Source of the DNA: Raja brachyura
Lineage: Eukaryota
NCBI GenBank assembly: GCA_963514005.1
Contig: OY740797.1
Coordinates: 24,800,001 to 24,864,000 of the forward strand
Reading direction: 5' to 3'
Length of the DNA: 64,000 nucleotides
Positions 2,011 to 52,237 of the stretch are shown piece by piece. Position numbers and translations under genes: made by a program. Each line of letters begins with the position of its first letter. Position 1 is the first letter of the stretch. The notes below the pieces were generated by a model, which saw only the letters and a program-made list of their open reading frames with translations, was not told where the DNA came from and made no database searches.

Positions 2011-2729
2011 TTCCCAATAGCAAAATGATAAAGAGGGAAAGGAGCTTAGTTTCAAGTTGCAGAAAATTTGGGACGGCCAGAACGGCAAAGGGGACATTTC
2101 GAATAGGACTGGAGCGCATAAATGCTGGAAAACATGCGACAGAAATGCAGGGAATGTTCAGTAAATTTGACAGTGTGATTTGAGAATTAACAATACAGAG
2201 CATACATGTTCTGCTGCGGGCAAGGAAGTCGAAGAAACATGGAAGAAAATGTACTATTTCATTTCAGCAGAATGGCGGATTTCGCCGCAGAATCATAGGG
2301 TCGGTAGGATTTCCTTGGAGAAAAAAGGTGACTACACTAAACTAACAGTTCTGCTTTCCCCAGTGATCCAGTTGTTGTCTCAGTTCTGACCAAAGGCGCT
2401 GTCTGCTCTGCTCAATCGAAGATACTAATTTCAAGAAAAGAGGACAGCTATTTAAAATCGAGTCGCATCGGAATTGCGTTTCACGGAAGGAGCTGAATCT
2501 CCTTTCCCTAAGTTAAGAAGGTAGATTATTGAAAACATTTAATTGAATTACCGATATTTGATTTGAAAGATCAGGGGATGGAAGGCTATGGGGAAATGGC
2601 ATAGAGGGTGGATTAATCACTTGCTGAATGGCGGGGCGGCCTTGAGTGTTCAGATTGCGGAAGATAGATACAAATAACTGGCGTAACTCAGCCGGACAAG
2701 CAGCATTTCTGGAGAGAAGGGAAGGGTGA

Positions 2730-2932
2730 TGTAGATGGTTTTGCATGCAACCAATAACATAGTTACCTCAATACCATTAACCCCGCCTAGTTAACATCAA
2801 TCATAACGCCTTCCCCTTCCTGGATACGGTTCACTAGAAGAATGTAGCCAGTATTTGAGGATGTATGTAATACCTTGTGCTATCATTAAAATGTGTTGAA
2901 CACTTTTAGAGTTTGTAAATTGCTTATTTACA
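2730..2932 (+). repeat. 5' LTR of Gypsy element
   Basis: TG..CA termini; matches 7075-7277 with one mismatch by eye (ctcaAtacc vs ctcaGtacc). Confidence 0.95.
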
Positions 2933-3026
2933 TGGTGTCGGAGCTGGAAGATACTTGCGCCTACCTGTCCATCGGGTTTTATTTCTTTTATTTGATTTGT
3001 GCCTTTTGTGCTTTATCTCTCTGACC

Positions 3027-6000
3027 ATGGCATCCTCGTGCAGAAAGCCCGCGCAGCTTGTCTTTGATGCTGATATTTCTGAGCGCTGGGCTACGTTTGA
3101 AATTGATTTCACCCACTTTGTCAACGTCGCTCACCGCAATGATCCTGACTCCCTCAAAGCCTCCCTCCTACTCAACCTTGTCGGACCTGATGCCATGAAG
3201 AGAGCCAGAACTTTCGTCTATGCTCCAGCGGTCCTGGACGACAACAACGTGGTGGTTACCCCTGCAGAATCTGCCAGTGACCCTGCTTGCCTGCTACGTA
3301 AGTTCAGGGAGATTTGTGACCTGCCCTCAAACCGCATTCTAGAGAGGGCACGGTTCTTTACAAGGAGACAGCTGCCGGAGGAACCTGTTGAATGTTTTAT
3401 TGCCGATTTGCGTTATCTCGCCCAGCGGTGCCGTTTCGGTGACATGACAGACCAGCTCACTAGAGACATTTTAGTAACTGGCATGCGTGACCAGAAGCTG
3501 CGATGTGAGCTTCTTAGGGATCCGGATCTAACGTTAGAAAAAGCCATGCATGCCTGCAGATTGTCTGAGGTCGTTGTATTGCCAGATGATCACCGGGACT
3601 TGAGAGATAAGTCTGTTCACCAGGCTGGATTTAGTAGAGCCCTGCCTCAGAGGGGAAACAATGCTTTTCTGCCGCGTGCCAACCCTGGTCCTGCTGATGT
3701 GCCCCCAAAAAGGTGCCCTAACTGTAACTACATGCACCACAGACGGTCGACGTGCCCTGCCTATGGCAAGGCTTGTAATTTTTGTAACAAACTGAATCAT
3801 TTCGCTTCTGCCTGCCGCTTATTCCGTTCTCGTGGGAGACAGGTACAGATTTCCAGACCCAGTCTAAACATGCTTAAACAATCTGATAGCTGTTCCAACC
3901 CACAGCCCGATGTTGCTGAATCCTATGATGCAGATCCAATTAATTCTCCCGAGGATTCGAATGTGTTTACCCTCCTCCAGGCACCTGGCCAACGTCTTGA
4001 TCCCTCCGTGTCTGTGACTGTCAACAATGTAACCTTCCTTGCGAAGTTAGATACTGGGGCAAAGGTCAATGTTTTGTCAATAAATCTTTTCAACAAGATA
4101 AGGACTAATGAGGCCTTGGTCGCTGACAATGCTACTCTACACGCCTATGGTGGAGAAATTCTCAGGCCTGTGGGGAGGGCCACTTTAACTTGCAGGCTAC
4201 AGAAGGCCACGAGAAACTTGATTTTTTATGTTTTGAACTCTGACTGTGTTACCCTGCTGGGAAACCGTGCGTGCCAAGATCTTGGCCTGGTGTCCTTCGA
4301 CCACACGGTCCACAAAGTGCAACTGTCATTTAACCCGATTGCAGAATACCAGGACCTGTTCAACGATGACCTGGGAAAGTTACCACTGACATACCATATT
4401 TCCATTGACCCAAATGTACAACCCGTGGTCCGCGCACCTCACAGGGTGTCCCACGCCATGAAAGACAGGGTCGAGGCGATGCTTAACAACATGGTCGACA
4501 AGGGGGTGCTAGAAGCGGTCAGCGAGCCCACCGATTGGGTCTCCACCATGGTTGCCACGATAAAGAAAGACAAGAATGAAATACGTGTGTGTATCAACCC
4601 CAAGGACTTAAACCTTGCCATCAGGTGACCACACTACCCCATGCGGTCTGTTGAGGATGTGGCGGCTCAGGTCGGGCAAGCCACCGTCTTTTCGGACCTA
4701 GACGCTAAGAACTCGTTCTGGCAGATCCCGTTGGACAAAGCATCTTCCGACCTGACAACCTTCGCCACACCATTCGGCAGATTCAAATTCCTGCGAATGC
4801 CATTCGGCATCAATTCCGCTAGTGAGGTGTTCCAGCGAACGATGGAGCAGATATTCTCGGGCCTGCCATGTGCCATCATTGTGGATGACATCTTAGTCTA
4901 TGGGAAGGACATTGCCGAACATGACCAGAACCTCCGCCGCGTCCTGGATCGGGCGCGAAAGGCCAACCTGAAGCTGAACCCAAAGAAGTGCCGGTTTCGT
5001 GTCTCAGAAGTCACGTATGTTTGCCACGTTTTCACCTCTAACGGACTAAAACCCGACCCTTTGAAGGCAGCGGCCATCTCTGAGATGGCAGCCCCCACCA
5101 ACGTGCCAGGTCTACAACGTTTCTTGGGCATGGTGAACTACCTTGGGAAGTTTGTACCACATCTCAGTGAGCTGAGTGCTCCCCTGCGGCAGCTGACAAA
5201 AAAGGATATCGCCTGGGTCTGGCTCCCACAGCACCAGCAGGCGTTTGACTGTCTCAAGTCGAAACTGATTAACACTCCGACATTGCGATTTTTTGATGCG
5301 AGTCGCCCCATCACCGTCACATGTGACGCTTCTAAGTTCGGCCTGGGCGTGGCATGCCTCCAATCTGTCGATGGATCGTTACATCCTGTCTCCTGTGCCT
5401 CCCGCACCATGACGGACACCGAGCAGCGGTACGCTCAGATCGAGAAGGAGCTGCTTGCGGTGGTGTTTGCCTGCTCCAAGTTCAGAGACTTCCTGTTTGG
5501 CAGCAGATTTACAGTCGAAACCGACCACCAGCCACTGGTGACAATCCTGAACAAGCCGATTCATGCTGCCCCTGCCAGGCTGCAGCGTATGATGCTGCAG
5601 CTCCAGCGCTTTGATTTCGACATCGTCTACAAGAAAGGCACCGAGATGCACATCGCGGACACGTTATCGCGTGCCCCACGGGCCTCCTGTGCTCGCCACC
5701 CCTACGAAACAGAGGACTTGCTCGTACTGGGCATCAATTTTATTCCCACCAAGCAGCTGCAGCTTTTGGCCGAGCACACCGCTGCCGATCCAGTTTTGCA
5801 ACGGCTTGCGTCTGTGATTAAATCAGGGTGGCCAACACCTGAGCCAACGCTCAGTGCCAATTCTACTGGCCTGGAATGGCCAAATATATTCGAGACCGTG
5901 TTTCTGCCTGCTCCACGTGCAACAGTCTTGCTCCACATCAGCAGCGACAGCCCCTGCTGCAACAGCCCGCTCCTGCCTTGGCCTGATCCTCGCTGGCTGC

Positions 6001-7012
6001 CGACATCTTCGAGTGGCGTGGTAACCACTACCTTGTCCTGGTCGACTCGTACTCAAACTGGTTCGAGGTGGATTTGCTGACATCCCTCACGTCGGAGATG
6101 GTGATCCGGAAGCTGCGGAAACACTTCTCCACGTTTGGGTCCCCTGTCAGGCTGCAGACTGACAATGGCAGGCAGTTTACCAGCCGTGAGTTCAAAAGTT
6201 TTGCTGACAAATGGAATTTTGTGCATTTCACCAGCAGCCCGGAGTACCCACAGAGCAACGGCCTTGCTGAATGGGCCGTCCGCAGCGCCAAGCTTCTGAT
6301 GGAACAAGCGAGACTGTCTAACTCTGATTTGTATTTGGATCTCCTGAACCTCAGGAATGTTTCCAGAGATCCAGCCATGGGGTCCCCTGCTCAGCGTCTG
6401 ATGTCCAGTACAACCAGATCTACCATCCCGATTGCCCAGCGCCAGCTGAAACCTCGGGTGCTGGAGCCTGCCTCTGTGCAGAGACGCATTCAAGAGAAAC
6501 ATGACAGCCAGCGGCGTTCCCACGATCGGTCGTGCAGACCACTCGATCCTCTGTTGCCTGGACAGGTTGTTCGATTGCAAACCGCCAGTGGTCACTCCCG
6601 TCTGGCTACTGTGGTTGGGGTGGCCGACTCACCTCGTTCGTATCTGGTCGACTATGAGGGAACCATCTACCGTAGAAGCCGACAACACCTGCTTGCGGTT
6701 AATGAGCCGAAGCCGCAGGCCCCGGGCCCCTATGCCCCGCCGCTCTCATACCAGCAGCCGCCTCCTGTCCCAGCCAGCGTTCCCTGCTTGCCTCGGTCCC
6801 CATATCGAGCGCCCGGTTCCCCTCTGCGCGGGTCACCTGTTGGCGGTCGCGGTTCTCCCTCTCCTGTTCCTCCAAACCCACCGCCCTTCCCTGGTTCCCC
6901 TGCTGTCTCGGGTCCCCCTGTTTTTTCTGCTCCTCTGGGGGAATGGGGAGGCATCCGTACGCGCTCGGGCCGGATCAGCAAGCCACCTGTTCGTTATGGC
7001 AATTCTGTTTAA
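3027..7012 (+). pseudogene. Gypsy gag-pol polyprotein, interrupted
   Basis: ORF pieces 2955-4628, 4641-6080 and 6068-7012. In-frame TGA at 4626-4628 within RT (LAIR*PHYPM). Internal deletion/frameshift near 5835: after SGWP the FYWPGM..CSTC segment lies in another frame and the preceding zinc-finger region is missing. Confidence 0.9.
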
Positions 7013-7074
7013 TTCTGTTTATTTCTGTTGTAGTGACAACGGTCTGTTTCTTTTAAATTTTCTAAGGGGAAGGA

Positions 7075-7277
7075 TGTAGATGGTTTTGCATGCAACCAAT
7101 AACATAGTTACCTCAGTACCATTAACCCCGCCTAGTTAACATCAATCATAACGCCTTCCCCTTCCTGGATACGGTTCACTAGAAGAATGTAGCCAGTATT
7201 TGAGGATGTATGTAATACCTTGTGCTATCATTAAAATGTGTTGAACACTTTTAGAGTTTGTAAATTGCTTATTTACA
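7075..7277 (+). repeat. 3' LTR of Gypsy element
   Basis: Preceded by the PPT, followed by TSD GGTGA. Confidence 0.95.
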
Positions 7278-7374
7278 GGTGACACTTCAGGTCGAGACCT
7301 TCAGACAGTTTTATTTCTTGAAACAAGACATACCTTGAGGAGATTTCGCAGTGGAGCGGGCAAAATGTGTCGAA

Positions 7375-7590: not shown

Positions 7591-8270
7591 CTTGTTTTTT
7601 TGACTCCTACCGTTTTTCCCGAATCGAAAGCGATCTTTTGTTTTAATCCTGTGACAACGGGGAAATGGGGATGGCGCTTATCAACGGGGAATGATAAATT
7701 GGTCCCATCATCCAGGCGCTTTGATGGCGCTTTGCATGTCATACGGCAGTAAAATGTAGCAAAGGCTGGGCAAGGGGTGGAGGAGGAGGGGGCTGAACTG
7801 TTTCGAGAAGGGCTCCATGTACTTGCTTGATACTCCATGAGGACTTAGCTTGCTTAGCATCATGGCGTGTTCAATGGAAAGTATTGGCGCAATGAAAGCA
7901 GGGCGCATCTGCGAAACGTCACTGTATTTTCACAAAGGTCGATCTTGGACAGCATATTCGCGACCATCAGTACGAGGACATTGCTCAATAGATTGCATGG
8001 GCAAAAGCGCAATGGCAGCAATTTCTAGCTGCATTGAATTTCTGTAGTTGTTCAGCAAATGCTTTGTGAAATTTTCGGAAATGTGTGAGCAGCCACTAAC
8101 TTGACCTTTGATCCGCGTCAATGCGCAGAGAGGCATCTCATGCATGAGATGAGCATGAGCAGACTCACTTTCAGGCACACCCACTGAACCTAAGCATACT
8201 CGCGGTATTCCTCTCTCAGTATTTATTCGACACTTGTTTCAGTCGACTGTTCTCTGCAGTTTTGCCGTGC

Positions 8271-8322
8271 ATGATGACACGTGTCTTACTGCAATTGATT
8301 GTTCTTCACGTCAGCTGCGCCG
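8271..8322 (+). CDS. Gene A exon 1, signal peptide MMTRVLLQLIVLHVSCA
   Basis: ATG, hydrophobic core, phase-1 donor G|gtatat; ends 172 bp upstream of the V exon. Confidence 0.75.
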
Positions 8323-11300
8323 GTATATTTTACTCTTAGAGTCAAACCAGACAGTCAAACCGAGACTTAGTTATCAATTTATAAGTTTGCTAACCCTTTA
8401 TCTTTATTTTTTTTCTCGTACAATTTTTTACTAATTTGGTCATTACCTCAGTTTAATCCTAAGCCTTATAGTTTGATTTTTCGTTTCCCGACAGCTGGTG
8501 ACAATGGTCTGTTCAACGTAACACAAGTTCCAGAAGCTGTTTTGATGCGGGGTGACTCGGCAGTGCTTTACTGCATTTATCCAATCTTCTCAGACAACAG
8601 GCCGTTCAAAGTGCATTGGTGGAGAGATGGAGATAATAGATTCCTGGATGAAAGTGCAGACAAAAGAATCCAGTTTTATTTCCTGAGACGCGGAAGCGCT
8701 GTCTTACGGCTGGGAAACGTGACAGCGAAGGACGCGGGGCTCTATTTTTGCAGCTTGACGCGTACCAACGTTTTTAACGGGACTGGCACAAAGCTGGTAG
8801 TTTACGGTGAGTTTTGGGGAGAGGAGTAAGCCAGATCGGTCAACTTCACCAAGTCAAAGTGATAAGCTCAATCACGTTGAAGAAATTGCGCTTTCTTCAT
8901 TATCTGTGTCCTTTGAAATAATATGATTTATGTGATGGGTTGGATAGTGTTTTTGACGCAATTACCAAATAATCCGAATAGACTGATTGAGAGAGTAAAT
9001 GACGCCTTCCACATCTTCTGCTTGACAGAATTATAAAACCTTTTGCGTATATTTTAGATTTGCTTCAACGCAGAGGGAATGGTGTTACTGAAACCAACGA
9101 CACACGGCACAGGTAGTAGAGATTGAAAATATGTACGGTTCCGAATGTGGTACTGATCAAGGAGATTATTTTTTTTATTGATTTATTTGCAGCTGTTATC
9201 TTTTTTTATCTAAAGTGTAAGGAATTGCAAGTATAAGGAATTTCAAGTGTCAGGAATTACAAAATCAGAGAATCATACAACACAACAACTGGCCCGTTCT
9301 GCCCACGTTGTCTCTGCCCACCGTGCTACTTGTATATGTTGATGCTGTTTGCCTGCATTAGGCCCATATCCTTCTATAACTCTTCTGCGTAATTACCGGT
9401 CTAAGGAAATTTAAATGTTGTTATTGTACTGCACCCTCTCCGGTGGTAGATGTTCCAGGTATGCAAAACTTCCTCTTCTCCTTTACATTTTTCCCCTTTT
9501 ACCTAAAAACCATGCCACATAGTCCTTAATTCCACTATACTGAGGAAAAGACCCCGTCTATGCTACGAGTGGCCCCGATATTTAAAACAAAAACGTTTAT
9601 TACGTTACTCCTCTGCTTCCTTCCTTCCATTGAGAATAAACGTAGTTTACCAAATGTCTCGTTATAAAAAGGCCCTCTGTTTCAGTCAACATTCTGGTGA
9701 AACTCTTTTGCACTTGCTCAATTGGTACCATGTTTAACCGTAGTATAAGTTTGGTCACATTTCCGATTGTCCCGGATTACTTGAAATTATATAGGAACCG
9801 TGAAGCGAGTGAATCATTGAGGAACGCATAATTCAAGATCTATCTTGTTACATTTAGTCTGCAGACGGGTCACGACCCGAAACATCACCTATTCCTTTTA
9901 TCCAGAGATGCCTTCTGCGCGCTGAGTTACTCCAGCTTTTTGCCAGGTTTAACCCAGCTACTACAGTTCCTTCCTACACATTGTTGCATTAACGTGTATT
10001 CTCCGCTCACCTTCCAATCGATTGAAATGGCATTAAGAATATATAGATATTGAAAACGGTTTGTTTATAAATGGTGCAAATGTACTTGTAGTTTGTATCT
10101 CAAGCCTACGTTTTGGGCGGGTTACGCAGACGCTGATCACTGTTTGAGTTGTTGTAAATGGAAAGGGTTGATGACTTTTCCACGAATGAATGTCATTGAT
10201 ATCGTGTGGGAGGCCTTAACATTCCATCCAAATTCTTAAGGGAATGTGTTGGTCTGGGATTATTGCTCTCGAAGTAATGCAACTACTTTCTTCTGCGCTT
10301 AACGGAATTCTAAATAGCAAGCTGTTCCCTCTGGTCCAAGTTTACAATATTTTTTCACACAAGGACGCACATTTTTCTGACCTAACTCAAACATATTTTT
10401 GACCTCAAGTTATGCTGAATAAATCTTCTGCTCGATTTATTTATTTCAACAACGATAAAGAATATATTTGTAAAATTGTGATAGTCGAGCTGTTATTATG
10501 GGTTACATTTTGTACAATTATCTCATCAAATTATAATAGAAATCGTGAAGACGTTTAGAAAATTCAAGCTAATACTTTGGTTCTTAATGTCTGTGCATGG
10601 AACAGAGCGCATCATTTACTTGCGCTGCGAGTAGAAACAGAAACGATATGATATTTATGAAGGTACACAAAAGGCTGGAGAAACTCCGCGGGTGCAGCAG
10701 CATCTAAGGAGCGAAGGAGATAGGCCACGTTTCGGATCGAGACCCTTCTTCAGACATTTATGAAGTAAGGTAACTGTTGTATAACAGACCCAAACTGTAA
10801 AATCAGGGCATACAATAAAGAGGCTACAATGAACTTTGATTCAAGTCACGAAAATCACCGGACTGCTGAAATTTAAAAATCGTTTTATTTTCCAGATCCT
10901 CCAACTCCTCTGAGCTTGACCACCATGCTGCCGGAGAATACATCAGTTACTCTAATTTTCGTTTGTAAAACAGCCACGTTCTTTCCCCTTGATCTGAATA
11001 TTACTTGGTACAAAAATGGGTCAGATATGAAACCTAAAATGGAGCCAAAGAAAACACAGACAGCATCAGGACTCTACGGGGCTACGAGTTGCCTGACGGA
11101 GACTGAACATGTGGAGAGCGGAACAGTTTATACCTGCCAGGTGTCTCATATTTCTCTTCCAAATCCAATCAATATCAGCTACACTTTCTACAGCCGAGGT
11201 AAGAACAGCGATATATTTTCAGTATAATTTGGCTACTTAGAACCATGATTACCTCATAAACACAGGCACAGATAATAAATAACAATATTGTTCGTTTAGC

Positions 11301-14300: not shown

Positions 14301-15252
14301 TGCCACCCTGAACACAGAGAACATCAATCCGCCTTTGGAAGTGAACTACGAAGTCATACACATCAATATAATGAAGGGCTCCAAAAGACCGATTTTCTAT
14401 CGGCATCCTGGATTTAAAAATAAACAAATTATAGGAATATGTATTTCTGTGTTGTATGATACCTCGTTTGTAACTGCTCAGTCGCAGCGAGCGAAATCTA
14501 CCTTGGATTATCCTCCCACTCTCTTGAATTTAATTTTTAAGGTTCCTGTAGATTTGGGATCGTAATTCACAGCAACATTCAATTTCCATAATTACATTCC
14601 CAATATTCCACGAATATTGCATCGTCTGGAACTCAGCTTTGGGCACGTCAGGGCCGTCATAAACGTAATGACGGCGGGGAAAATTTTCTGGCCTCACTGT
14701 ATAATCACATGATGAAGAGTAAATAAGTGTTTTTATAATTTTCAATTTCTGGATATTCCACAATATGGCCCGTTGTACCGACACAGCTATACATCACTAC
14801 ATGTTGCGCTCTGCAACATGGCTATATACACACCTCGAAATAATTAGTATTGGTTGTAGCCAAATATTTGGGGAGGGGGGGGGGGGGGGGGGGTTTCTGC
14901 ACCTCAATGATGCTTTCATTATATGTCATATGCACACAACTGGGATTGCACAGAAATGGAAAACAGCAACTGCGCTGATGGGCAATGTTCCTGTCTGTTT
15001 ATTTCGCGTCGAAAAGTCAAATTGATATATTTTTTAAAGACAGAATGACGCTGTTGAACTGATTACCTGTCCTATTATATAATACTGTACAGATGTTAAA
15101 ATTTACCACTATTTTTTAAATTGTTTACAGTTTTTGTTGATCCACTTCATAACACGAGTTTTGGTTGCATAAGAGCAGGATTGATACCTATCGCAATCGT
15201 TATTTTCATTGTGATATATAAAGATAAGACTTCGAACCTATTTGATCTCTAG
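8271..15252 (+). CDS. Gene A: non-rearranging VJ-C1 IgSF receptor (NKp30/SIRP-like), Arg-containing TM, short tail; predicted 262 aa
   Basis: Exons 8271-8322 (leader), 8495-8806 (VJ), 10896-11198 (C1) and 15131-15252 (TM plus read-through tail to TAG). All introns GT-AG and phase 1, joined frame open. An alternative or vestigial last exon lies at 17939-18003. Confidence 0.8.
8495..8806 (+). CDS. Gene A exon 2, V-set Ig domain with in-exon J-like strand
   Basis: Acceptor tttcccgacag, donor G|gtgagt. Motifs VTQ..GDSAVLYC, VHWWRDG, SAVLRLGNV..DAGLYFC, FNGTGTKLVVY. Confidence 0.95.
10896..11198 (+). CDS. Gene A exon 3, C1-set Ig domain
   Basis: Acceptor ttttattttccag, donor G|gtaaga. C1 motifs CKTATFFPLDLNITWYKNG, GLY..TS.L, YTCQVSHISL. 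Confidence 0.95.
12308..12723. repeat. ~74-bp inverted repeat pair around a ~270-bp spacer (MITE-like foldback)
   Basis: 12308-12381 is an imperfect reverse complement of 12649-12723 (cagccaatccaa.cccaccctataact.aaaccatt.tga.ctgattatatcctcgtaatcg). No clear TSD. Confidence 0.8.
14085..14290 (-). mobile_element. Short 5'-truncated CR1 3' end
   Basis: Reverse complement of the CR1 3' stem-loop (ggctcgaagggtcgaatggcctactcctgcacc) and 8-bp tail repeat; near-identical copies at ~46757-46997 and ~60972-61192. Confidence 0.8.
15131..15252 (+). CDS. Gene A exon 4, stalk + TM + short tail VFVDPLHNTSFGCIRAGLIPIAIVIFIVIYKDKTSNLFDL*
   Basis: Acceptor ttgtttacag, phase 1; ~20-aa hydrophobic stretch with Arg (AGA 15172-15174). 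Ends IYK at the position where the gene C TM exon ends IYR, but the donor position reads G|ataaga, so the frame runs to TAG. Confidence 0.7.
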
Positions 15253-15440
15253 ATTGTTGTAAAATTAACCAATCGGAATTCAGCAATACATTAGTTTAGT
15301 TTAGAGATACAGCGCGGAAACAAGCCCCTCAGCTCACCCAGTCGGCGCGGAACAGCGATCTCCGCAACCTACACACATTAACGACAATTTATAATTATAT
15401 CAAGCCAATTAACCTACAAACCTGTAAATCTCTGGGGGGG

Positions 15441-17485
15441 GAAAGGAACCAGTAAAAATTGGAAAGAGCCCTGGTTTTCAAGGGAAATTGGACATCTTGT
15501 TCGGAAAAAGAGGGAGATCTACAATATTTATAGGCAGCGTGAAGTAAATGAGGTGCTTGAGGAGTATAAGGAATGTAAAAAGAATCTAAAGAAAGAAATT
15601 AGAAAAACTAAAAGAAGATATGAGGTTGCTTTGGCAAGTAAGGTGAAAGTAAATCCAAAGGGTTTCTACAGCTATGTTAATAGCAAAAGGATAACAAGGG
15701 ATACAATTGGTCCATTGGAGAGACCGAGTGGACAGCTATCTGCAGAGCCAAAAGAGATGGGGGAGATATTGAACAATTTCTTTTCTTCGGTATTCACCAA
15801 GGAGAAGGATATTGAATTATGTGAGGTAAGGGAAACTAGTAGAGTAGCTATGGATACTATGAGTTTCAAAGTAAAAGAAGTACTGGCACTTTTGAAAAAT
15901 ATAAAAGTGGATAAGTCTCCAGGTCCTGACAGGATATTCCCTAGGACATTGAGGGAAGTTAGTGTAGAAATAGCCGGGGCTATGACAGAAATATTTCAAA
16001 TGTCATTAGAAACTGGAATAGTCCCCGAGGATTGGCGTACTGCGCATGTTGTTCCATTGTTTAAAAAGGGTACTAAAAGTAAACCTAGCAATTATAGACC
16101 GGTTAGTTTGACTTCAGTGGTGGGCAAATTAATGGAAAAGCTACTTAGAGATAATATATATAAGTATCTGGATAAAGAGGGTCTAATTAGGAACAGTCAA
16201 CATGGATTTATGCCTGGAAGGTCATGTTTGACTAATCTTCTTGAATTTTTTGAAGAGGTTACTAGGGAAATTGACGAGGGTAAAGCAGTGGGTGTTGTCT
16301 ATATGGACTTCAGTAAGGCCTTTGACAAGGTTCCTCATGGAAGGTTGGTTAAGAAGGTTCAACTGTTGGGTATAAATGCAGGAATAGCAAGATGGATTCA
16401 ACAGTGGCTGAATGGGAGAAGCCAGAGGGTAATGGTGGATGGCTGTTTGTCGGGTTGGAGGCAGGTGACTAGTGGGGTGCCTCAGGGATCTGTGTTGGGT
16501 CCTTTGTTGTTTGTCATGTACATCAATGATCTGGATGAAGGGGTGGTAAATTGGATTAGTAAGTATGCAGATGATACCAAGATAGGGGGTGTTGTGGATA
16601 ATGAAGAGGATTTCCAAAGTCTACAGAGTGATTTAGGCCAGTTGGAAAAATGGGCTGAAAGATGGCAGATGGAGTTTAATGCTGATAAATGTGAGGTGCT
16701 ACACCTTGGCAGGACAAATCAAAATAGGACGTACATGGTAAACGGTAGGGAATTGAAGAATACAGTTGAACAGAGGGATCTGGGAATAACTGTGCATAGT
16801 TCCTTGAAGGTAGAATCTCATATAGATAGGGTGGTAAAGAAATCTTTTGGTATGCTAGCCTTTATAAATCAGAGCATTGAGTATAGAAGCTGGGATGTAA
16901 TGTTAAAATTGTACAAGGCGTTGGTGAGACCAAATCTGGAGTATGGTGTACAATTTTGGTCGCCCAATTACAGGAAGGATGTCAACAAAATAGAGAGGGT
17001 ACAGAGGAGATTTACTAGAATGTTGCCTGGGTTTCAACAGCTAAGTTACAGAGATAGGTTGAATAAGTTAGGTCTTTATTCTCTGGAGCGCAGAAGGTTA
17101 AGGGGGGACTTGATAGAGGTCTTTAAAATTATGAGAGGGATAGACAGAGTTAATGTGGACAAGCTTTTCCCTTTGAGAATAGGGAAGATTCAAACAAGGG
17201 GACATGACTTTAGAATTAAGGGACAGAGGATTAGGGGTAACATGAGGGGGAACTTCTTTACTCAGAGAGTGGTAGCGGTGTGGAATGAGCTTCCAGTGGA
17301 AGTGGTGGCGGCAGGTTCGTTGGTATCATTTAAAAATAAATTGGATAGGCATATGGATGAGAAGGGTATGGAGGGTTATGGTATGAGTGCAGGCAGGTGG
17401 GACTAAGGGAAAAAAGTTGTTCGGCACGGACTTGAAGGGCCGAGATGGCCTGTTTCCGTGCTGTAATTGTTATATGGTTATATGG
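15441..17485 (+). mobile_element. Young 5'-truncated CR1 LINE with open RT frame, inserted into a SINE
   Basis: ORF 15553-17406 (NYRPVSLTS, QHGF, DFSKAFD, GVPQGSVLGP, YADD); (TTATATGG)n tail; SINE halves on both sides. Confidence 0.95.
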
Positions 17486-17938
17486 AAACCAGATATACTG
17501 GAGAAAATAATGTTTGCGAGTTTTATTGGATCGGACACAACGCGGTTAGCTGATCTATAAATATGCCCGCCGCATCTCACTAGGTGCATGGTTTCTCGGA
17601 AGCTAACCTTTGAGCTAGTCACCGATTTGTACATGAAGGGTTGATGCTTGGTGTTGTGGGCCAGGTTGTGGAATAAGGGGTGGAGTCTAAGAAAATGGGT
17701 CGGTGATGCAAAAACTCATTTCGCAATTGATTCTGCTTCGATTCGACAACTTGAAGAGGACTCATATTCTGTAGATTTTTAACTATTGATATCGTGATAT
17801 TAGTTTCACTGCATACATGTATACAAACACAAAAGTAATCAGAAAAATATAACGTTTTATATGCTGCTAGACGTACTGGCTACTACGCTTTGTCTAGGCC
17901 AATAGTGATTTTTTCCCCTTTAAATTACCTTCCTATAG

Positions 17939-18003
17939 GGCCGTGCAGAACATCGAAAGAAAGTACCGATCAGAAAACGGAGGCAAGACGAATTACTGAA
18001 TGA
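17939..18003 (+). CDS. Gene A candidate cytoplasmic/terminal exon GPCRTSKESTDQKTE(ARRITE*)
   Basis: Acceptor ttaccttcctatag, phase 1. After exactly 44 nt (same length and phases as gene C exon 53514-53557) comes a donor-like GAG|gcaaga. Read-through gives TGA at 18001-18003 with AATAAA at 18112-18117. Confidence 0.5.
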
Positions 18004-20626
18004 ATGAATAGACATGTGTAATACTGCAGGTGCATTCGAACGACACTTGGACTCTCCCAATTATTACCTTCGTTTGGCTTTCAAATGTTACTGCAAGTCA
18101 AATTAGAACAAAATAAATTTCCTCGGCTAACATAACTGTTGCAGGCTCATGTATGTACTTGATGATACTTATGGAAGCACTGAGATAGGAACGAAGAATT
18201 TAGAGAAGGGATAGGTCATATGATCCTTCGAACATGCTACGTCGTTCAGTATGATCATGACTGAACTTGCAAAGGCAATGTCCTGCTCCTGTTTTCTCCC
18301 AATGTCCATTGATCCCAGATATGTGTTTCCTTCTGTACGTCTCTACCATGTTATAACAATATGTACTCCATTGTTAATGTATTTAATCATTTTGATTCGA
18401 GTGATTAATGATATAGAGAAATATGTATATGTGCTCAACTCCTAGAGAAGAACGCCGTCCTCATCACAGTCTGAAGTGGATTTTCCCTTATTCTTTGATA
18501 ATGATCCCTGGTACTTATTTCCCCATCAATCGGAACACACTTACTCCATCATATCTTTCCTCGACCGTGGATATTAAAGCATTCTGTGGGCTACCTTCTT
18601 AGGCTTTCATATTTTAACCTAATACCCCAATTTAATCAAATGCGTACGTCAGTCTTGACGCAGTCTACCAGTCTGTTGAAAGTACATGGAACTCACACCA
18701 TCACATGAAGATCTGTTCACAGTCAAATATACAAAAATACACTCAACTCTCAAGGAGAGCAATCAGCCATGTGTATACAACTGCATTGAGACAATGCGTT
18801 TTCTATTGTGGAATCCTCTTGATATGAAGAACATTCTATAATTTGCCTCCTTCGTTGCTTGCTGCGAGTGTATGCTTAGCTCTGCTGCTTTTCATAATCT
18901 ATCGGGATTCAACCAATGATCGTCCTTCTTGTCATTATCACCGAAGTAGAAACCCTCGCATTTATTAAGATTGCACTCCATCCGCCGTGAATCTGTCCTT
19001 TCTCTCAATATGAAGCTTCTCAGCATCCATCTGAGTGCTCATCCTCTCACGCAGTTTGATGCTGTCGATAAACAGCCATATAATACATTTAATTCCATGA
19101 TCTAATTAGCAATATATATCGTGACTAGCTGAAATACCAGCAATGAATTCGATGGTACCCTGCTACTCGATGCCTGCTACTAGGGGTATCAGGCATGTTT
19201 ATTTCCACTCTTTCTTTTCTGTTGGTCAACTAATTGCTGATTACTCTCAGCATGCTAACCTTTAATTTCCTTAATCTGTTCGGTAAGATTTTACTGAAAT
19301 GCTTCAGGGCGTATAAATACACTAAAACGACGGACTCACATATTCTGCTAGTTACTTCCTCAGAAATACGATAGACTTGTCAAGCATGATAGCCGTTTCA
19401 CAAATTGACGTTTACTTTGACCGGTCGCTTTTCCCCATTCTACTTTTAACTCCCTTTGCTCAATTGCTTCCAAAGCTAGTTTGTTAAGTTTTACTTTGGT
19501 GGAGCCTTTTGGATCCTCGAGATTTATTCGTGCCAGTCACCTTCGTTCGACAGACACAGTTTATCCACTAGTATTGGTTTCACTTAGTTCCTCCCCTCGA
19601 CTAGACAAAGTGTTTCTCACATAGATCCAAGGCCATTTAAAATCCCCCATTCAAGCTAATCAAATGGCATATTTAAGTGTCCTGCTATTTCTTTGTTTTA
19701 TTAATTTATAATTCAAATTCTGCATACATTTTACCGTTCCTGACTGTAGGTACTTAAAATGTCCATCATCTATCTTCCCTCTTCACACACACGCACACAC
19801 TCACATACACACACTTATACATATACGCTTTTGCAGTCCGTGGTTAAATATCCATGAGCTTCATCTTGTATTCTACATCCACACTTCTAACTACCCATTA
19901 CCTCGTAGCTGAAGCCTCAAGTTCTCATAATCCCCAATTTGTCTACGTTTTCCAGCCATATTTTATTTCTGCTCTGTGGATGTCTTTGGGCTATATTGTA
20001 GACTTCCTCGCTACTAGTGGAATAGAGAGGAACTGATACACGTGTTTCCATAAATATAGCACTCAGTAGTGAAACTTCCAGATTATGTTCCAAACATTCA
20101 GATTATGTCCTTGTTTTTTTATGTAATTTTCCCACTGTTTCATACCCTGTATTTTAAGTAGTATAAATCATGGAGTATAACCACAATAATGAGATGAAGC
20201 AAAAATGAATAAACCTGTTTGTACAAAGAAAAAAATCGGATATGCCCCTGTGTTCTTGCCTGTTTTGGTGACATTTCTCAAGCAGGATTTCATCAGATCC
20301 TAAGGCTAATTTATCAGAAAGATGACATTAATTTTGCAATTAAATAAGTCAAATTCTGATTTTGCTGATGATTTTTATCATTTATCACCCGATAAGATGA
20401 TTTTCTGATGCCCCAAGTGTTTGCAACAGAACGTGAGTAGCAGTGTCAATTTGGTCACGTGTTAAATGTGTTATTTAAAAGCAGAGTAACCGTTTATATA
20501 TATAGTTGTTTAAAATCTAGTTTGCTCAAATCTAAAATAAAAGTTTGCCCAAATATTTTAGCGATGTTTAATTCTGTATGTTGTATCCCCCCCCCCCCCC
20601 CCCCCCCCGTTGAGTAACGTCGTCAA

Positions 20627-27892: not shown

Positions 27893-28092
27893 NNNNNNNN
27901 NNNNNNNNNNNNNNNNNNNNNNNNNNNNNNNNNNNNNNNNNNNNNNNNNNNNNNNNNNNNNNNNNNNNNNNNNNNNNNNNNNNNNNNNNNNNNNNNNNNN
28001 NNNNNNNNNNNNNNNNNNNNNNNNNNNNNNNNNNNNNNNNNNNNNNNNNNNNNNNNNNNNNNNNNNNNNNNNNNNNNNNNNNNNNNNNNNNN
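27893..28092. other. Assembly gap (200 N)
   Basis: Run of N; the round length suggests a scaffolding gap of unknown true size. Confidence 0.99.
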
Positions 28093-28270: not shown

Positions 28271-28552
28271 CGATTCCAGGAAAACGGTGAGTTTCATTGG
28301 TCGGAAACAGGAGAGTGACGTGAGACACGTGGCAACTATAAACCGATCGGCTATCCACTGCATGCAGGAAGCTGGAAGCAAGGTATAATCCCTCGTCGTT
28401 CCGTATTTTAGTGGTATATATTCCAGAAGTGATTTCTTGGTCATCTTTATACCAGGTAAGTTCACAGTTCTCCGGGAAAAACGGAGCAGTTGTGCAGTTT
28501 AGGACCAGGGAGGGAGTGTTCATCTGTGTAATCTCCAAAGGCGTCGGCGACA
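28271..28552 (-). CDS. Gene B exon 3, C1-set Ig domain
   Basis: Acceptor tattgtctacag, donor G|gtatga. Motifs SPTPL, LNCTTAPFFPENCELTWYKD, GLYLASSFL, YSCHVSHVTL. Confidence 0.95.
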
Positions 28553-31500
28553 CTGTAGACAATATAAGACAAATAAGTTAGTACCCCTATATGTTTATTT
28601 AGAAGACAACAGAATCGCTTTCGAAATGGATAATACCATACCTTCTTGGGCGTTCCTTAAATAGTAAAGTATTTCAGCTACGTTGTTGGAAACATATAGT
28701 ACAATAAACCGCCGTTATAACGCAGTGGGACAGAACCACTATATCTGACGTCACCACCTATCACTTTCCCAAACGCCTTAATTCAGTCCATGCGACGAAT
28801 GGAGAAACTATCCGCATGGACGGCTGAGTCTGGGGAGGAGGGGTGAGCCAAGCCTCTGTGAAATAAAGAACAGAGCATTCGGTCATCTCTCTTTGATAAA
28901 GCTACCTCGCCTCCGAGATTTCCTTGTCATGGGGGGATTCTATTTTTTATTGTGCGACACAGTTTTAGTTTATTATCACGTGTAGCGAGCCACAGTGAAA
29001 TGCTTTTTGTTGAATGTTATTCAATCAGCGAAAATACTACTCATAATTGCAATCAAGCCGTCCATATTGTACAGATTCATGATTACTGGAGTGCGTTTAG
29101 TTCTCTAGTTGGTGATTGGACGATTTTGGGTACATGCTGGGCAAACAACGTTGCTACACCAGACAAAGCAGAGTTCAAGGTGGTACAATCAAATGGAAAA
29201 TTGCGTTAATTAAATCGTAAATTTCGTTATTTTTGTATCATATGTAAAATATGCTGAAAGAGAGAAGCAGGTTTATGTAATCGTGAGAGTCTTGTGATTG
29301 AATTGAACTGAATTACCTTTATTGTCATTCAGACCTTTCGGTCTGAACGAAATTTCATGCCTGCAGTCATACATATATAAAAAAATAACAAAAAAGCACA
29401 CAATAAACACAAATTTAAAATCCACCACAGTGAGTTCACCAAACACCTCCTCACCGCAGCTCCAAAGCCAGGTCGTCACTGGAACGTCACTGGAGCACCG
29501 CAGCCCCGCAGCCAGGTCGCCGCTGGAGCACTGCAGCTCCGAAAGTCAGGTCGCCGCTGAAGCTCCGAAGCCGTGCCGGCTCCGCCATTAGGGCCTCAGC
29601 ACAGACGGAGACGGTGACCGGGGACACGACAAGAAAAGTCGCATCCCCCAGAAGGGAGAGGCTAAAACCCCGTTTCAGAATAATTTGCACGTTTGACATA
29701 ATGTGTAGTATCTAGTGTTACGCGGAAAATAAATAAAGTTTTGAGTGAAAAGGGTAGTTATAGGAGCAACAATAAACAAAACTGGGAAACCGTGGGAAGA
29801 TCCGATCAAGTTTGAAAAAGTTCTGCAGAGTTGTATTTAAGATGAACTTTTTAAAGCAGTCTGATGAATTTTAAGATGATAAACGACGAAGACACCTTAG
29901 TTTTAGTGTACATAATAAAGGTAAAAAGGGAACACGGGTGGCAGGCAGCGGGGTGGGGGGGGGGGGGGGGGGGGGAGGGGGGCAGTTAATTTAGAATGTG
30001 GTGATGCGAGCTTACAGTTGTGTCTTATAATGGAATATATCTAGGGACGTCGAGAATCGACGAAACCAAAACATCAAATTAAGAGAGGAGTAGCATGTAA
30101 AGACCTATATGAAGACTGGTGGATGACTAATATTGTGGCTATATTTGAGAAGGCTGCAAGAAAAATCCTGGGAACTGTAAACCAGTCTGTGGTAGGAAGG
30201 CCACTGGAAAGGATTCAGAGGGATAAAATATGTAAGCATTTGATTAAAAAGGAGCCGATCGAGGAGGGGGGGGGGTGATTTAATAGAATGAAATGTTTAG
30301 CAACAGCCATTACTTAACACCAAATAGGACACCATCTATAAAGGCAAAGGAACGTCACCGTTATGCTCCCGTTCACATAACAAAAGCATTATCTCCACAT
30401 CGGTGGGTAAATCGTTGATCTCCATCCCAAACTGATCTATGCAAATACTCTCACCAGAGAATTTCCGGGGATCTTTCACAAGTAGTGATCGGAAATGTGC
30501 TGGAAGCAGAGCTAATCAAACCGTGAAAAATAAATTAAAAAAACACCTGGTGGAAAGCAACTTAAGCGTTCCAAGAAAGAAAGGATGCTTGGGACTGACA
30601 ACTTCGCTTTCCTGGTGGCGGGCACATTATTGATCTCTCCACTGCGACGCAAACTTATTTTCCTCGGTTATTGTAATTTAATGTGGTGAAATGTTTCGTT
30701 TACAAGGACTTGATTCCACTACTCTGGGTAAAAGGCTATGCATATTACAGATTTATTCCGGTCATGATCAGATACCCCTCAATAAATTCACCCCTTACCC
30801 TCCTGCGCTGCAAAGAATAACGTCCTGGCCAGCTTAGGCTCTCCCAATAGCTCAGAACCTCGCGTGGTGGCAACATCGTCGTAAATCTGCTCTATACCCT
30901 TTCCAGCTTAACTACATCATTCGTAGTTGGAGAGTTGGAGATACAATAGGGGCATCTTAGATATTTTTTAAATAGGCAAATACATGGTATGAAATAATAT
31001 GTCTCACACAGAGCGGAGATTTGTTTAGTTTGGCACCATAATCTACACTGGAATTGTGGGCGGAAGGGCCTACTCATGTTCTATGTTTAGGAGTTGTTGA
31101 ATTGATTTTTGAGCAGTTATAAGTTTCGAAAATGATGGGGTGCTTTAGGTATTTGTCGTGTTCGCAATATATGTCACGGTACTTAAACTGGACAAGGTAT
31201 GGGAGCGTGTCTGTGTGTATTCAGTAGTTGTTGATGTGGGATTGAAATGTGCGGTGGGAAGACCGTACTCAGTTGGGTGAATCTTTCTGGCATATTTCCA
31301 CCCAGAAATCGAGTATGACGCTGACGTGCCATTCGTATTGAAGCTTCTGTTCTCCCACTCGACGCTCTGCTGAGTTCCAATGAAACTCAACGTAAATTCA
31401 CGGATAACGTTTTGATTAATATTCTCAATTTGCAATTTAATCATTTGAATTCTGGTACTACATTTATCTCCTTTGTTTACATATTTTGTGACGTTGCATT

Positions 31501-32857
31501 TTTCTCAGATTTTCCCCCGTTTATAATGTAATTTTTGGGTCTTTCACCCACATTAATGCGCCATAACGCACCCCACCTATTCTTCCTGGCTATACCTCTG
31601 AATTTCTTCAACAATTTTCATCGTGAACTTTTGTTAGTTCCGCTATAACGTTCTCGGCGGAAGCTAATTTCTGTAGTCGCAGATATGTTGTGACTCGTAT
31701 TTTATCATTCATTTTCTTTCAAACTATGATTTCCTAAAATCACGATAGAATAGTCTTATACACAGGTTTGCGGTTAGAATATTTCATGCTCACTATTCAC
31801 CAAATGTTTCGTCTAACAGCATACGTTTTGTTAACATTTACTAGTGGGACTAGAAATAGCTACACAAATGATCAAACATGGATATTCTGCAACAAAGAGC
31901 TCAATTCGCGATCCCCCAAGAATGCTCCATCATCTGGATATCACAGGTCTCGACTCTATCGCAATGTTTTTCTGACTAAACGACTGCAGAATATGATGGT
32001 TTACATTTAATTGACTAATATCTGCAATCTTAATCTATACTCCTTTCGCTGGATGCAGTTGAGGGCTCCCTTCGAAAATTAACCCTACACATAAAAATGA
32101 TAACTAAATGGTATGAAATATTGATTGTCCAAAGATCTCATGGTCCAACAATCATGAAAAACCAATTACTTAAATCGTTAGAGCAAAACACCTAGTACAG
32201 ATTGAGAAAAGGTCCGTTTATTGCTACTTTATATCTCTGTTGCACACCATATTTCTTTTTGTATTGTGATTCGAATCAACAAGTAAGACTCACCGTGTAC
32301 AATAATCCTCGTGCCATTGCTTTTGGAACTCTTTCCTTTCCAGCCTCTCACACTGCAATAATAGATCCCGGAGTCACGGAAGCTCACGTCTAACAGATGT
32401 AATTCGGCAGATCCCTTCGGGACATTGTTCATAGTCATCCTCCTGTATGCGGTGGGATCCAAAGTCTCTTCTTGACCGCCTCTCTTCCAGTATACATCCA
32501 CCAGTGCGATCTGACCGAAGATTGGGAAAGTACAGTATAGGGATACATTTTCACCTTTCACTTTCGTTACCTTTTCTGGAATCAGACGCACCCTGAACGA
32601 AGAGGCCCCAACAGTAACTGTCAGAATTAAAAACAAACGTTAAACATGTGAAATGACAATGAACGGATTGATAAAAATCCAAATAGCTGAAATAGCTCGA
32701 CCGAAAAGTAAGAGTTGTCCATCTTATACTTTTCGGGGATTGACCTTTCCCCTGTCATTTTCGTTTAATAGAGAGAAATATATTAACCTGGAAATATATT
32801 AATCATGCGCAGGATCGAGAGACACAGCAGCACGGCAAACATAAACATTCTGAACAT
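28271..32857 (-). CDS. Gene B: non-rearranging VJ-C1 IgSF receptor, 3'-partial (TM/cytoplasmic exons not found)
   Basis: Exons 32857-32788 (leader), 32617-32294 (VJ) and 28552-28271 (C1); GT-AG phase-1 introns, open frame. Confidence 0.85.
29296..29680 (-). mobile_element. Short non-coding retroposon with a LINE-like 3' tail
   Basis: Plus strand begins with (AATTG)-like repeats and tttattgtcatt-[hairpin ttcagacc-tttc-ggtctgaa]-cgaaatttcatg, like the tail of the Rex1-like LINE at ~53876-53945; GC-rich internal repeats. Confidence 0.55.
32294..32617 (-). CDS. Gene B exon 2, V-set Ig domain with J-like strand
   Basis: Acceptor ttttaattctgacag, donor G|gtgagt. Motifs GENVSLYCTFPI, VYWKRG, SAELHLLDV..DSGIYYC, SNGTRIIVH. 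Confidence 0.95.
32788..32857 (-). CDS. Gene B exon 1, signal peptide MFRMFMFAVLLCLSILRMINIFP
   Basis: ATG at 32857, hydrophobic core, phase-1 donor CAG|gttaat, 170-bp intron to the V exon. Confidence 0.7.
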
Positions 32858-48153: not shown

Positions 48154-51100
48154 GTAAACTACGACTTCTGTTGCTTTTAATTTATGGTTCTTCAAAATAC
48201 GCAGATATTATAGTTGTACCTTATAATGTCATGCTGAATTGTCCATAAAGTCATGGCTGTTGTATGGGTTCTGGAAAGGAGTGTAATTTACGAAACCTTC
48301 ACGAGGACACAAATAGCGGGCAGAATAATTCGGTTCAATCCATTGTAAATATTTGGTCTGAGTGCAATAAGATTTTTGCCAGCAGTGTTTAATATCCATT
48401 GCTGTATATCAATGACTAAACTGGATTGTGCACCATCTATTGACAGCTGCTGAGAACAGGTCGGGCAAGACGATATCGAATGTTCTACAGAAGCCGGTGA
48501 TCAGTGGCATAAACTTTACCTGTCGGTGTTCCTTCCCCTTCACTGTAAATGTGTCAAACCTAACGGTTTTCTGGTGGAAAGATGGAAATAGAGGCTTCCT
48601 GAAAGAAGATAGCAGGAAAATCTTCATGATAAAGGCAGGAGGCGCCTACCTTCACCTGCTGAATGTCACGGTTTCGGACGCCGGAACATACTATTGTCTT
48701 GCAAAACAAGCGGGCCGAACGGTCGCGGATGGAACAGGAGAGCAACTGATCGTATATGGTGAGCGAACGGTTCTTTAGTTGCAGCTCGAATTTGGATTTT
48801 GCTTCACAAAAGTCTTTAATCCAGAATACAAATGTGCAAAACGTTGGAAAATTATCTAGATTGATTCGTTTGAAAATATAGGTCAGAGGGCATAACAACA
48901 ATGATATTTGAGTTTGTGTATATTGAAGGTAGTGAGTATAAGATGAATACATATATAACGGTTTCAATTTGACACTGAACGCCGAGGCGAGGATCCATCT
49001 GATGTTTTCCTAATGATAATGTTATCAACATATAATCATGTGAATTGAAAGAGCGAGGTTTTTATTTCAACAAAATAATTGAAATACACATTATATTTCT
49101 TTCGTCGAATTAGAGAAACAAGAAATTTTAGTCAAAGCATTCTCTGTAAGCCAGTCAATGTCTGCAACTGTTTATGACTGATTATATTGGGAAGTTTACA
49201 TATTCACAACAGTAATGTGCCTTTGAAGAGGTGAAACTTGAACGTTCATTCGCGCATGTGAGCACAAGAAACAAATGTGCAAATTAGTGCCCTCTTCTTA
49301 AATATCAAGGGAATGCATGTCAAGGGAAAGGGGGGGGGGGGGGGGGGGGGGGGGTCAATTGCGATGAATTACACCTTCGTCTGGGCTCCCGAATTAAAAA
49401 TTATGATGGAATTAAGTAGCGTCGGAACAAATGCTATTGGATGATGTAATCGACTTTTCCCCTTTCTTTTAATTATATTCTTCTCTATTTAGCCGTCCCT
49501 TCTCCTCTGAAGATTGTATCTGTTCGATCTAGAAATGCTGCGACTCATTTCCTGAAAATCCAGTGCAGAACGGCTGCCTTTTACCCGAAAGAATTTAATC
49601 TCACCTGGCATAGAAATGGTTCCATCATCCAATCTGGATTTCGGCATGAACAACATTCAACGGCAGACGGATTGTATGAAGTTAACAGCTCTTTAGATGA
49701 GAAACGGGCAGTCAAAGAAGGAACCGTTTACACATGTAAAATTATTCACCGTTCTATGCTAACTCCAGCAACTGCCAACTACACGGTTCCTCATGAAGGT
49801 AACGTGTCCCACGCATAGTATAATGGATAGTCCACTGGATAATAATATTAATGGTAAAAATAAAATGTGAGGATATTTAAAAGACCGTATCTTCTGCAGC
49901 AAATTAATTTTCCTAGAACTTGTGCAATTTTCATATTTTTTGCCGGAGTAGACAGACGCTGTGCAGTCCATCCAGTCTATGTTGCCTCCCAGAAGATTCC
50001 ATCAATACCGTTCCCGCAGTCGATCGCGCACCCGTAGCCCATTCCCTTTCACGTGATCTACAAGTCCACTCTGATGCCCCCACAAACATCACACGTTCCC
50101 GAGGAATAATGTAAAAATAATCAATTAACTCACCAAGCAGTTCCTTGGTAAAATCTAAGAGAATGTGCAATGTCGATGCGACAGTTCCCGAAGCCAGGCC
50201 TGAGCTCGGATACCTGGAGATGTGAATCAATAGCACTATTGCTGGACCATTAACTCGGTGAAGGTTTTATTTTTGTTCGTTTATGGCTGAAATGTGTAAC
50301 CAATTGCAACTCAGACACAGAAACTACCTAAAAATAATCCGCGCAAATACCGAAATATGAAGTACTACTCCTCCAATTTGTCTGTGGCCTCACTCTGCTA
50401 ACGCAGGATGCCCAGAACATAAAGGTCAGTGTGCGAATGGGAAAGTGATTCTAAATAGTTAGCAACCGGGAAATCCAATAGGCCTTGGCGGACCTCGTGC
50501 ATGTTTTCAGCTAAACGGCCGCAGAATCTACCTTTGTCTCGTTATTGTACGATAGCCCGCGTCAGGAACACTGGATGCTGTAGAGAAGGTGATGGGAGGT
50601 GGGTGAGGGAGGGAGGGAGGGAGGGAGGGAGGATTAAGGGGGGGTGGGGGGTGTCACGCTCACTAAAGAATGAGAGCAGGGTGGAAGTTAGTGGAGTAAA
50701 TAATGCTGCTATACGTTCTGCACAAGTAGCTCCAGCGTAGTTCTCGATGTATTCGAGAAGGAGTTCGGGGATAACGCCAGCGCAGGTTTTGAACAAGCGC
50801 TGTAACCAACAAATGTAACCAACAAAATGGTAGCCAGTAGCTGTGGCTGATGTGAGTGTTCATGCTGCAACTTTAACTTGGAGAAAGTGAGAGGAGTCAA
50901 AAGAGACGTTGTAGAGGGTGACGACAAATTCCTCTAAATATCTGTGGTCTCTTTTCAAGGAAGAAACCGAGGTCATGAGATTGTCCTGCTCCTAACCACT
51001 CTACACCTAGCTTGGGGCTTGGAGGGAGAGATAGATCAGCCATGATTTAATGGCGGAGTAGACATGATGGGCCGAATTGCCTAATTCTCCTATCCTTATG

Positions 51101-52206: not shown

Positions 52207-52237
<31 letters not shown>

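Follow-up and report, generated by a model that had tools for sequence, protein, structure and literature searches.

A tail-less, arginine-bearing duplicate with a lost splice donor in a paired-receptor-like gene cluster of the skate Raja brachyura

The gene A locus

We analysed a window of 64,000 nucleotides from Raja brachyura (assembly GCA_963514005.1, contig OY740797.1; C17:24,800,001-24,864,000, where C17 is its chromosome and bare coordinates below are window positions), and focused on gene A, a receptor-like gene of the immunoglobulin type, using as comparator its sister, gene A', which lies 85 kb upstream on C17. Gene A arose by duplication, acquired an arginine (Arg) in its transmembrane (TM) segment by a one-base change from glycine (Gly), lost both of the tyrosine (Tyr)-motif tail exons that A' has, shares with A' a near-identical tract of promoter, leader and variable (V) exon, and gained the Arg before it lost the splice donor of its TM exon. 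The coordinates and sequence features given for gene A in an earlier note on this DNA were re-checked and each was found in place:

8271..8322, + strand: leader exon, coding part, identical to that of A'
8495..8806, + strand: V domain, VJ-type, in a single exon; open, canonical splice sites (PF07686, E 1e-8)
10896..11198, + strand: C1-set exon; open, canonical splice sites (PF07654, E 3e-12)
15131..15223, + strand: TM exon, 93 nucleotides (nt), beginning after AG
15172..15174, + strand: Arg codon AGA, where A' has GGA; it encodes residue 6 in the best TM window of 21 residues
15224..15229, + strand: dead TM donor ATAAGA (GTAAGA in A'), directly after the G at 15223
15250..15252, + strand: stop TAG on read-through of the TM donor (read-through peptide DKTSNLFDL)
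17939..17982, + strand: exon 5, 44 nt, phase 1 to 0
17983..18003, + strand: exon-5 donor GCAAGA, where A' has GTAAGA, followed on read-through by TGA at 18001
18112..18117, + strand: candidate polyadenylation signal AATAAA

The leader, V, C1 and TM exons contain zero stops and zero frameshifts, the V exon ends in a J-like G-x-G-T-x-L-x-V, and the TM exon sequence is ...FGCIRAGLIPIAIVIFIVIYK. Searched against the whole genome, the gene A V exon gave 32 matches, on C17 only, with A' the best at 98% identity; its top named protein match was from Leucoraja erinacea (87% over V). Gene C, against which the earlier note had compared gene A, has a TM donor G/GTATGT and a 44-nt exon 5 at 53514-53557 as counterparts, but is too distant to serve as outgroup (36% V identity), and A' was taken instead.

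Comparison with the sister gene

At the three diagnostic sites A' has a GGA codon, a TM donor G/GTAAGA and an exon-5 donor G/GTAAGA, and its two Tyr-motif tail exons lie at C17:24734608 and 24738918, with neither present in gene A. Shark and ray orthologues (P0002-P0004) have Gly or alanine in the same TM stretch and carry Tyr-motif tails; therefore the Arg, both donor changes and the absence of the tail are derived in gene A. The earlier suggestion that the Arg codon is one base from Gly was thus borne out by the true sister, and the site differences go beyond chance. Two features emerge from the alignment of the two genes:

7725..9256, + strand: gene-conversion tract shared with A', covering the proximal promoter, leader, intron 1, V exon and part of intron 2 (95.9% identity over 1538 columns)
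18790..18801, + strand: end of similarity to A', the tail-loss breakpoint, 130 bp before the first Tyr-motif exon (exon 6) of A'

A profile built from 22 tail units revealed no Tyr-motif exon downstream of gene A from 18 kb to the assembly gap at 27893, and a genome-wide search with A' exon 6, which a strongly diverged copy could escape, returned a single match. Together with the breakpoint at 18801, these searches support the earlier observation that no exon with a tyrosine-based inhibitory motif of immunoreceptors (ITIM) follows gene A. A tail hidden in the gap or on another contig was rejected on the single match of A' exon 6 and on the position of the breakpoint, 9 kb before the gap, and an orphan A'-type tail exon at C17:24885706 was rejected because it lies 70 kb off, past genes B, C and D1. 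GC can act as a working splice donor, but that of gene A exon 5 has nothing to splice to because no exon follows.

Outside the tract, identity between gene A and A' is 70-81%, from the upstream sequence through the 3' end, whereas 150-column windows across 7943-9293 show 96-99%. The two V domains are identical at 101/103 amino acids (aa), the C1 of gene A is 86% identical to that of A', and synonymous differences number 3 in 75 sites for V vs 24 in 75 for C1 (Fisher p 9e-6). For C1, the synonymous divergence (dS) from A' is 0.42 and the non-synonymous divergence (dN) 0.089, i.e., a dN/dS of 0.21, which excludes an old pseudogene and answers the dN/dS check that the earlier note had proposed for this exon. 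In the C1 tree, A' clusters with Leucoraja and Amblyraja proteins and gene A falls outside (support 95/87), while in the V tree gene A and A' are nearly identical, with Leucoraja 0.1 away; hence the duplication predates the Leucoraja and Amblyraja splits and the V match is younger. The divergence of that match, ~2%, is below the 4% separating this species from the nearer of the two relatives considered next (organism C).

Order of the changes

Contigs from 4 of 21 listed sequencing runs were compared over 14900-15432, including those of two relatives, namely organism C (~4% diverged; a single contig of depth 3.7 with 16 differences in ~415 bases) and organism D (~9.5% diverged; a single contig of depth 30.6 with 39 differences in 412 bases). 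Base 15172, the first of the Arg codon, is an unchanged A in both, and both have G at 15224, i.e., an intact GT donor. Changes at 15173 or 15174 are absent among the differences listed for either relative, the unlisted ones lying mostly at low-depth or repeat positions, and retention of the Arg codon reads as firm for organism D and likely for organism C. As both relatives keep the A of the codon together with GT at 15224, the Arg predates those splits, and the G of organism C makes the loss of the TM donor younger than the split from that relative. Gene A appears to be an already converted gene that was later struck by a splice lesion. The earlier note had read it as a gene caught converting into a short-tailed activating receptor, and had named base 15224 in related species as a check: an activating-type paralogue produced by tail loss would still be the best reading of the lineage, and the recent donor loss stands, but the Arg is older and the gene was not caught in the act. 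The place of tail loss in this order depends on an Amblyraja protein model (P0007) that has Gly and a spliced TM and ends, like gene A, by read-through of the exon-5 donor; if its 3' end were orthologous to that of gene A, which is uncertain, tail loss would have preceded the Arg. On this evidence both tail loss and the Arg would fall before the loss of the TM donor.

Predicted products and proposed mechanism

Splice donors were scored with a simple matrix built from 26 donors of the cluster, and 0 of the 11 GT sites in 15131-15440 reach the weakest of these; a cryptic donor at 15211, which would give a 271-aa product, was rejected because it scores below every training donor. Read-through of the dead donor gives a type I protein of 262 aa with a 10-residue tail and requires a 3' untranslated region (UTR) of 2.1-2.9 kb. 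If the TM exon is skipped, the reading frame is kept (phase 1 to phase 1) and the product is an anchorless 243-aa precursor, which stops at 18001, with AATAAA 110 bases further on. Contrary to the earlier note, the donor loss thus does not force read-through: in human cancer data, according to the available part of PMC6071634, exon skipping is the commonest outcome of donor loss, favoured for short, low-GC exons in long introns, and intron retention the rarest (1917 vs 6873 skips overall). Carrying these human data over to a skate, we infer that TM-exon skipping ranks above both read-through and silence for gene A.

These observations lead us to an account that we hold at close to, and slightly below, even confidence, in which gene A, a duplicate of the Tyr-tailed A' that carries the Arg and has no tail, likely evolved as the activating partner of A', and in which the donor loss likely tilts its output towards a secreted V-C1 decoy. 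A' would recruit phosphatases via its Tyr motifs, whereas the ancestral gene A protein would have had its TM exon spliced to exon 5 and a tail of 21 residues. The genome contains TM exons with Cys-x-x-x-Asp that, by likeness, we take to be those of FcR-gamma and CD3-zeta. The outer-TM Arg of ancestral gene A may have paired with the Asp of one of these adaptors, as is described for NKp46 and NKp30 in the available portion of PMC6514059. Gene conversion would hold the ligand-binding V of gene A matched to that of A', a situation known from other paired receptors. Because the donor is dead and the surrounding sequence offers no usable cryptic GT, the TM exon would now mostly be skipped and C1 joined in frame to exon 5, which is the least certain step, and some transcripts may read through to the 262-aa membrane form.

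Arg and Tyr tails across the family

A census of 1.0 Mb spanning both C17 clusters annotated 32 loci, 30 of them with a TM exon; it leaves out a V match at C17:16.79 Mb, the stretch 20.23-20.25 Mb, the sequence past 25.124 Mb and two degenerate C1 fragments. The first of these is a single family V exon (C17:16,788,029-16,788,322), 3 Mb away from the nearer cluster. Members carry automatic database names only (tapasin-like, SIRP-like, MHC-like). An Arg near the outer TM end is present in 10/30 TM exons, and an intact Tyr tail in 0/10 Arg genes vs 13/20 others (p 0.001), or p 0.007 if D1 is credited with a tail on account of the frameshifted orphan exon that lies 10 kb behind it; with the Arg required inside the best 21-residue TM window, the counts are 0/7 vs 13/23 (p 0.010). 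Of the 13 tailed genes, two carry a frameshift in another part of the gene. The nine Arg genes with a V exon fall on 9 separate branches of the V tree, each next to a non-Arg sister and 8 of them next to a tailed one. Among 56 database proteins with C1 and TM, a Tyr motif was counted in 1/8 of the Arg type vs 30/48 others (p 0.017) by an automated window on gene models; Arg-type examples come from catshark, bamboo shark, horn shark, sevengill shark, stingrays, devil ray and little skate.

Gene C3 (C17:25,013,245, within 25,009,000-25,016,400) has an Arg at the same TM position as gene A, gained independently via GGA to CGA. Its TM donor is intact; in the first tail exon the Tyr is gone, a stop has appeared and the donor is dead; its V differs from that of gene C by 3 residues; C3 is a better candidate than gene A for a recent conversion to the activating type. 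Interruptions and frameshifts affect the tail exons of both g19872 and g19847, with V, C1 and TM open. Within C17:19,808,000-19,923,000, g19847 combines the V-C1 of g19920 (96.5% DNA identity) with a g19872-type Arg TM, and its sequence reads as an activating-type gene made by recombination. Gene E1 (C17:24,954,000-24,964,000) is a second chimera, of E-type V-C1 and a D-type Arg TM. The V proteins of g19872 and g19813 are identical. The D1-type Arg TM with its 12-residue tail is conserved in Leucoraja (P0083). An inverted pair at C17:20,119,000-20,152,000, g20121 (with a Tyr tail) and g20149 (Arg, tail-less), is 92% identical over V-C1 only. Two successive TM-like exons in g19792 (C17:19,788,646 and 19,789,919), the first without and the second with Arg, may offer alternative anchors; no tail was found for this gene.

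Neighbouring genes and inserted elements

The other features of the window that bear on gene A or its comparisons are as follows:

2729..7278, + strand: young Gypsy-type long terminal repeat (LTR) element, missing from A' (LTR mismatch at 2/205 positions)
15441..17485, + strand: young fragment of a long interspersed nuclear element (LINE) within the intron that follows the TM exon, missing from A' and 97-99% identical to other copies
28271..32617, - strand: gene B, V and C1 exons
48447..58293, + strand: gene C, an intact V-C1-TM gene with a Tyr-motif tail

The Gypsy-type element sits 1 kb upstream of the gene A start codon and could influence its expression. Two LINE copies in opposite orientation (15441-17485 and 22309-25402; 97-99% identical) flank the 3' end of gene A and might promote inversion or pairing at the RNA level. 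The V and C1 exons of gene B are open, and the assembly shows neither a TM nor a tail exon for it; the gap at 27893-28092 begins ~180 bp past its C1. Elsewhere in the cluster, tandem repeat arrays occupy C17:25,022,760-25,027,490 and 25,094,000-25,094,970.

Comparison with known receptor systems

Gene A combines a V domain near-identical to that of the Tyr-tailed A', a charged TM residue and the absence of a Tyr-motif tail, the combination that characterizes the activating side of paired receptors. The closest system by features is SIRP (0.96), which is also among the top matches in the PDB, where the scores of SIRP, IgM and B7-H6 are almost equal (51-53 bits). The C17 family resembles SIRP in its ectodomain of VJ-type V plus C1 (Pfam V-set and C1-set), in tails of tandem two-Tyr units and in having tail-less members with a charged TM residue, but SIRP has three domains (V-C1-C1), whereas each gene of the C17 cluster has one C1. 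Mammalian SIRP genes lie in synteny with NSFL1C and PDYN. Using markers identified by Pfam family only, we found SEP-domain (NSFL1C-type) matches on C4 and C22 and an opioid-peptide match on C5, and none on C17. The charged TM residue of SIRP-beta is a lysine. The outer-TM Arg seen here is of the FcR-gamma/CD3-zeta type, whereas SIRP-beta uses DAP12 (available part of PMC12975943). The C17 family would appear to work like SIRP-type paired receptors but to differ from SIRP in domain number and synteny.

The earlier note had also pointed to human NKp30 (NCR3), and that likeness is confined to mechanism, given the V-C1 layout, the lack of linkage to the major histocompatibility complex (MHC) and the closer match to SIRP by features. 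NKp30 has the TM motif LLRAGF at this position. Shared features are a single-exon VJ domain and a TM Arg for CD3-zeta/FcR-gamma, the latter according to the available part of PMC6514059; NKp30 is a lone V domain, whereas members here are V-C1 and mostly Tyr-tailed. All 12 MHC_I matches are on C25, C1218, C352 and C127, with 0 on C17, and on domain number and MHC linkage the C17 family falls outside NCR3.

Siglec and LILR genes are also homogenised by gene conversion. In the accessible text of PMC5112662, paired CEACAM receptors of Xenopus and human show the same conversion pattern as gene A and A', with a ligand-binding exon near-identical between inhibitory and activating members and divergent flanks. 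However, activating CEACAM members have their own motif resembling the tyrosine-based activation motif of immunoreceptors (ITAM), and the same source links conversion to opposite orientation, whereas gene A and A' are direct repeats. B7-H6 (NCR3LG1) shares the V-C1-TM layout and is among the top PDB matches, but it is a ligand rather than a family of Tyr-tailed receptors. The B7-H6 locus is syntenic with MYOD1 and KCNJ11, and C17 has 0/4 of the myogenic and 0/18 of the inward-rectifier matches, the pair being on C18. Among cartilaginous fish, skate MDIRs and the shark NCR3 family are multigene activating and inhibitory immunoglobulin receptors; the domains of MDIRs are of the I/C2-set and the shark NCR3 genes show linkage to the MHC, and it is by these general descriptions that we set the C17 family apart from both. 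We found no description of the C17 family in the literature, a weak absence as subscription journals lay mostly outside coverage, and the parts of PMC12227049, PMC6795676 and PMC11599192 that were available do not describe it.

Weighing the alternatives

The strongest competitor to the account given above, which we nevertheless consider unlikely, is that gene A continues to encode a functional activating receptor of the membrane and that its TM exon is now the last coding exon, with polyadenylation at 17335 or 18112. The read-through frame is open to a stop 26 nt beyond the dead donor and yields the 262-aa protein, the tail so replaced had no signalling motif, so that the donor loss could be harmless, and leader, V and C1 are intact, with the V tract recently converted. 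Against this, the membrane form must cross the LINE and bypass the intact exon-5 acceptor within its long 3' UTR, the human data show intron retention least often of all outcomes (PMC6071634, in part), and the gene A TM has the least favourable of 30 rough insertion scores.

Less probable again is that gene A is a young pseudogene in this species, once functional and lately released from selection. Polarised with A', the changes listed for the TM exon and its donor since the split from organism C comprise 3 amino-acid changes and the donor loss and 0 synonymous ones, counts too low for significance. Young Gypsy and LINE insertions flank the gene, but intact paralogues carry intronic insertions as well. 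Broken paralogues are frequent in the C17 clusters, with frameshifts in B4, g19726 and g19985 and missing exons in B, g19706 and g19963; however, leader through TM of gene A is free of such damage, and the C1 dN/dS rules out an old pseudogene. An assembly error or rare allele at 15224, with the usual gene A having, like that of the relatives, a spliced Arg TM and a tail of 21 residues, is improbable: although both relatives have G there and base 15224 rests on the assembly in this species, since the contig from a second sample ends at 15146, the site lies outside any homopolymer and that contig agrees with the assembly at 198/198 bases (14949-15146), among them 15139, where the change is lineage-specific.

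Several observations also weigh against the reading of gene A as activating partner turned secreted decoy. First, the dating uses one contig from each relative, with bases 2-3 of the Arg codon judged from the listed differences, and P0007 is A'-like in C1 and TM, with Gly, despite its A-like 3' end, so that its orthology is ambiguous. Second, signs of constraint are mixed: the TM exon differs from organism D at 10/93 nt, 9 of them non-synonymous, which is no purifying signal and matches both the flanks (p 0.69) and neutral expectation (p 0.47); the C1 of gene A has evolved faster than that of A' (14 vs 7 differences from the Leucoraja protein); and gene conversion can act on a dead copy too. 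Third, no tail was found in 7/20 non-Arg genes either, and shared TMs reduce the 10 Arg genes to ~7 independent origins, a genealogy that inflates Fisher significance and makes the p values optimistic. Finally, none of the listed runs is on record as RNA. In apparent RNA data from the same sample, whose RNA status was inferred from the size of the run and an exon-limited contig, the only contig on the TM exon has the exact 11 letters of A'; the comparison covered 14900-15432, a stretch between C1 and exon 5 in which skipping would not show, where there was no gene-A contig, and says nothing on silence. Protein searches (2 and 10 matches) returned no full-length protein of the gene A type.

Implications for the family

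Taken together, the comparisons suggest, as a tentative picture somewhat short of an even chance, an elasmobranch SIRP-like family of VJ-C1 paired receptors with ~30 genes, in which activating, Arg-bearing twins arose ~7 times here, at three TM positions, each losing its Tyr tail and each with V kept matched to an inhibitory twin by conversion; gene A would have gone one step further, a single splice-site change turning it into a secreted decoy. Paired receptors whose V exons have undergone conversion are already known; the elasmobranch VJ-C1 version with repeated origins of Arg would be a new variant. In gene A, successive steps (tail loss, Arg gain, V conversion and anchor loss) can be set in dated order; the gene is modest by itself, and the pattern repeated across the family is the stronger result. 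Knowledge of natural-killer and myeloid receptors in cartilaginous fish is sparse, and the C17 cluster holds inhibitory/activating pairs with identical or near-identical V domains. With such matched pairs, the pathogen-decoy model for receptors of this kind becomes open to direct test in the oldest lineage that has adaptive immunity.

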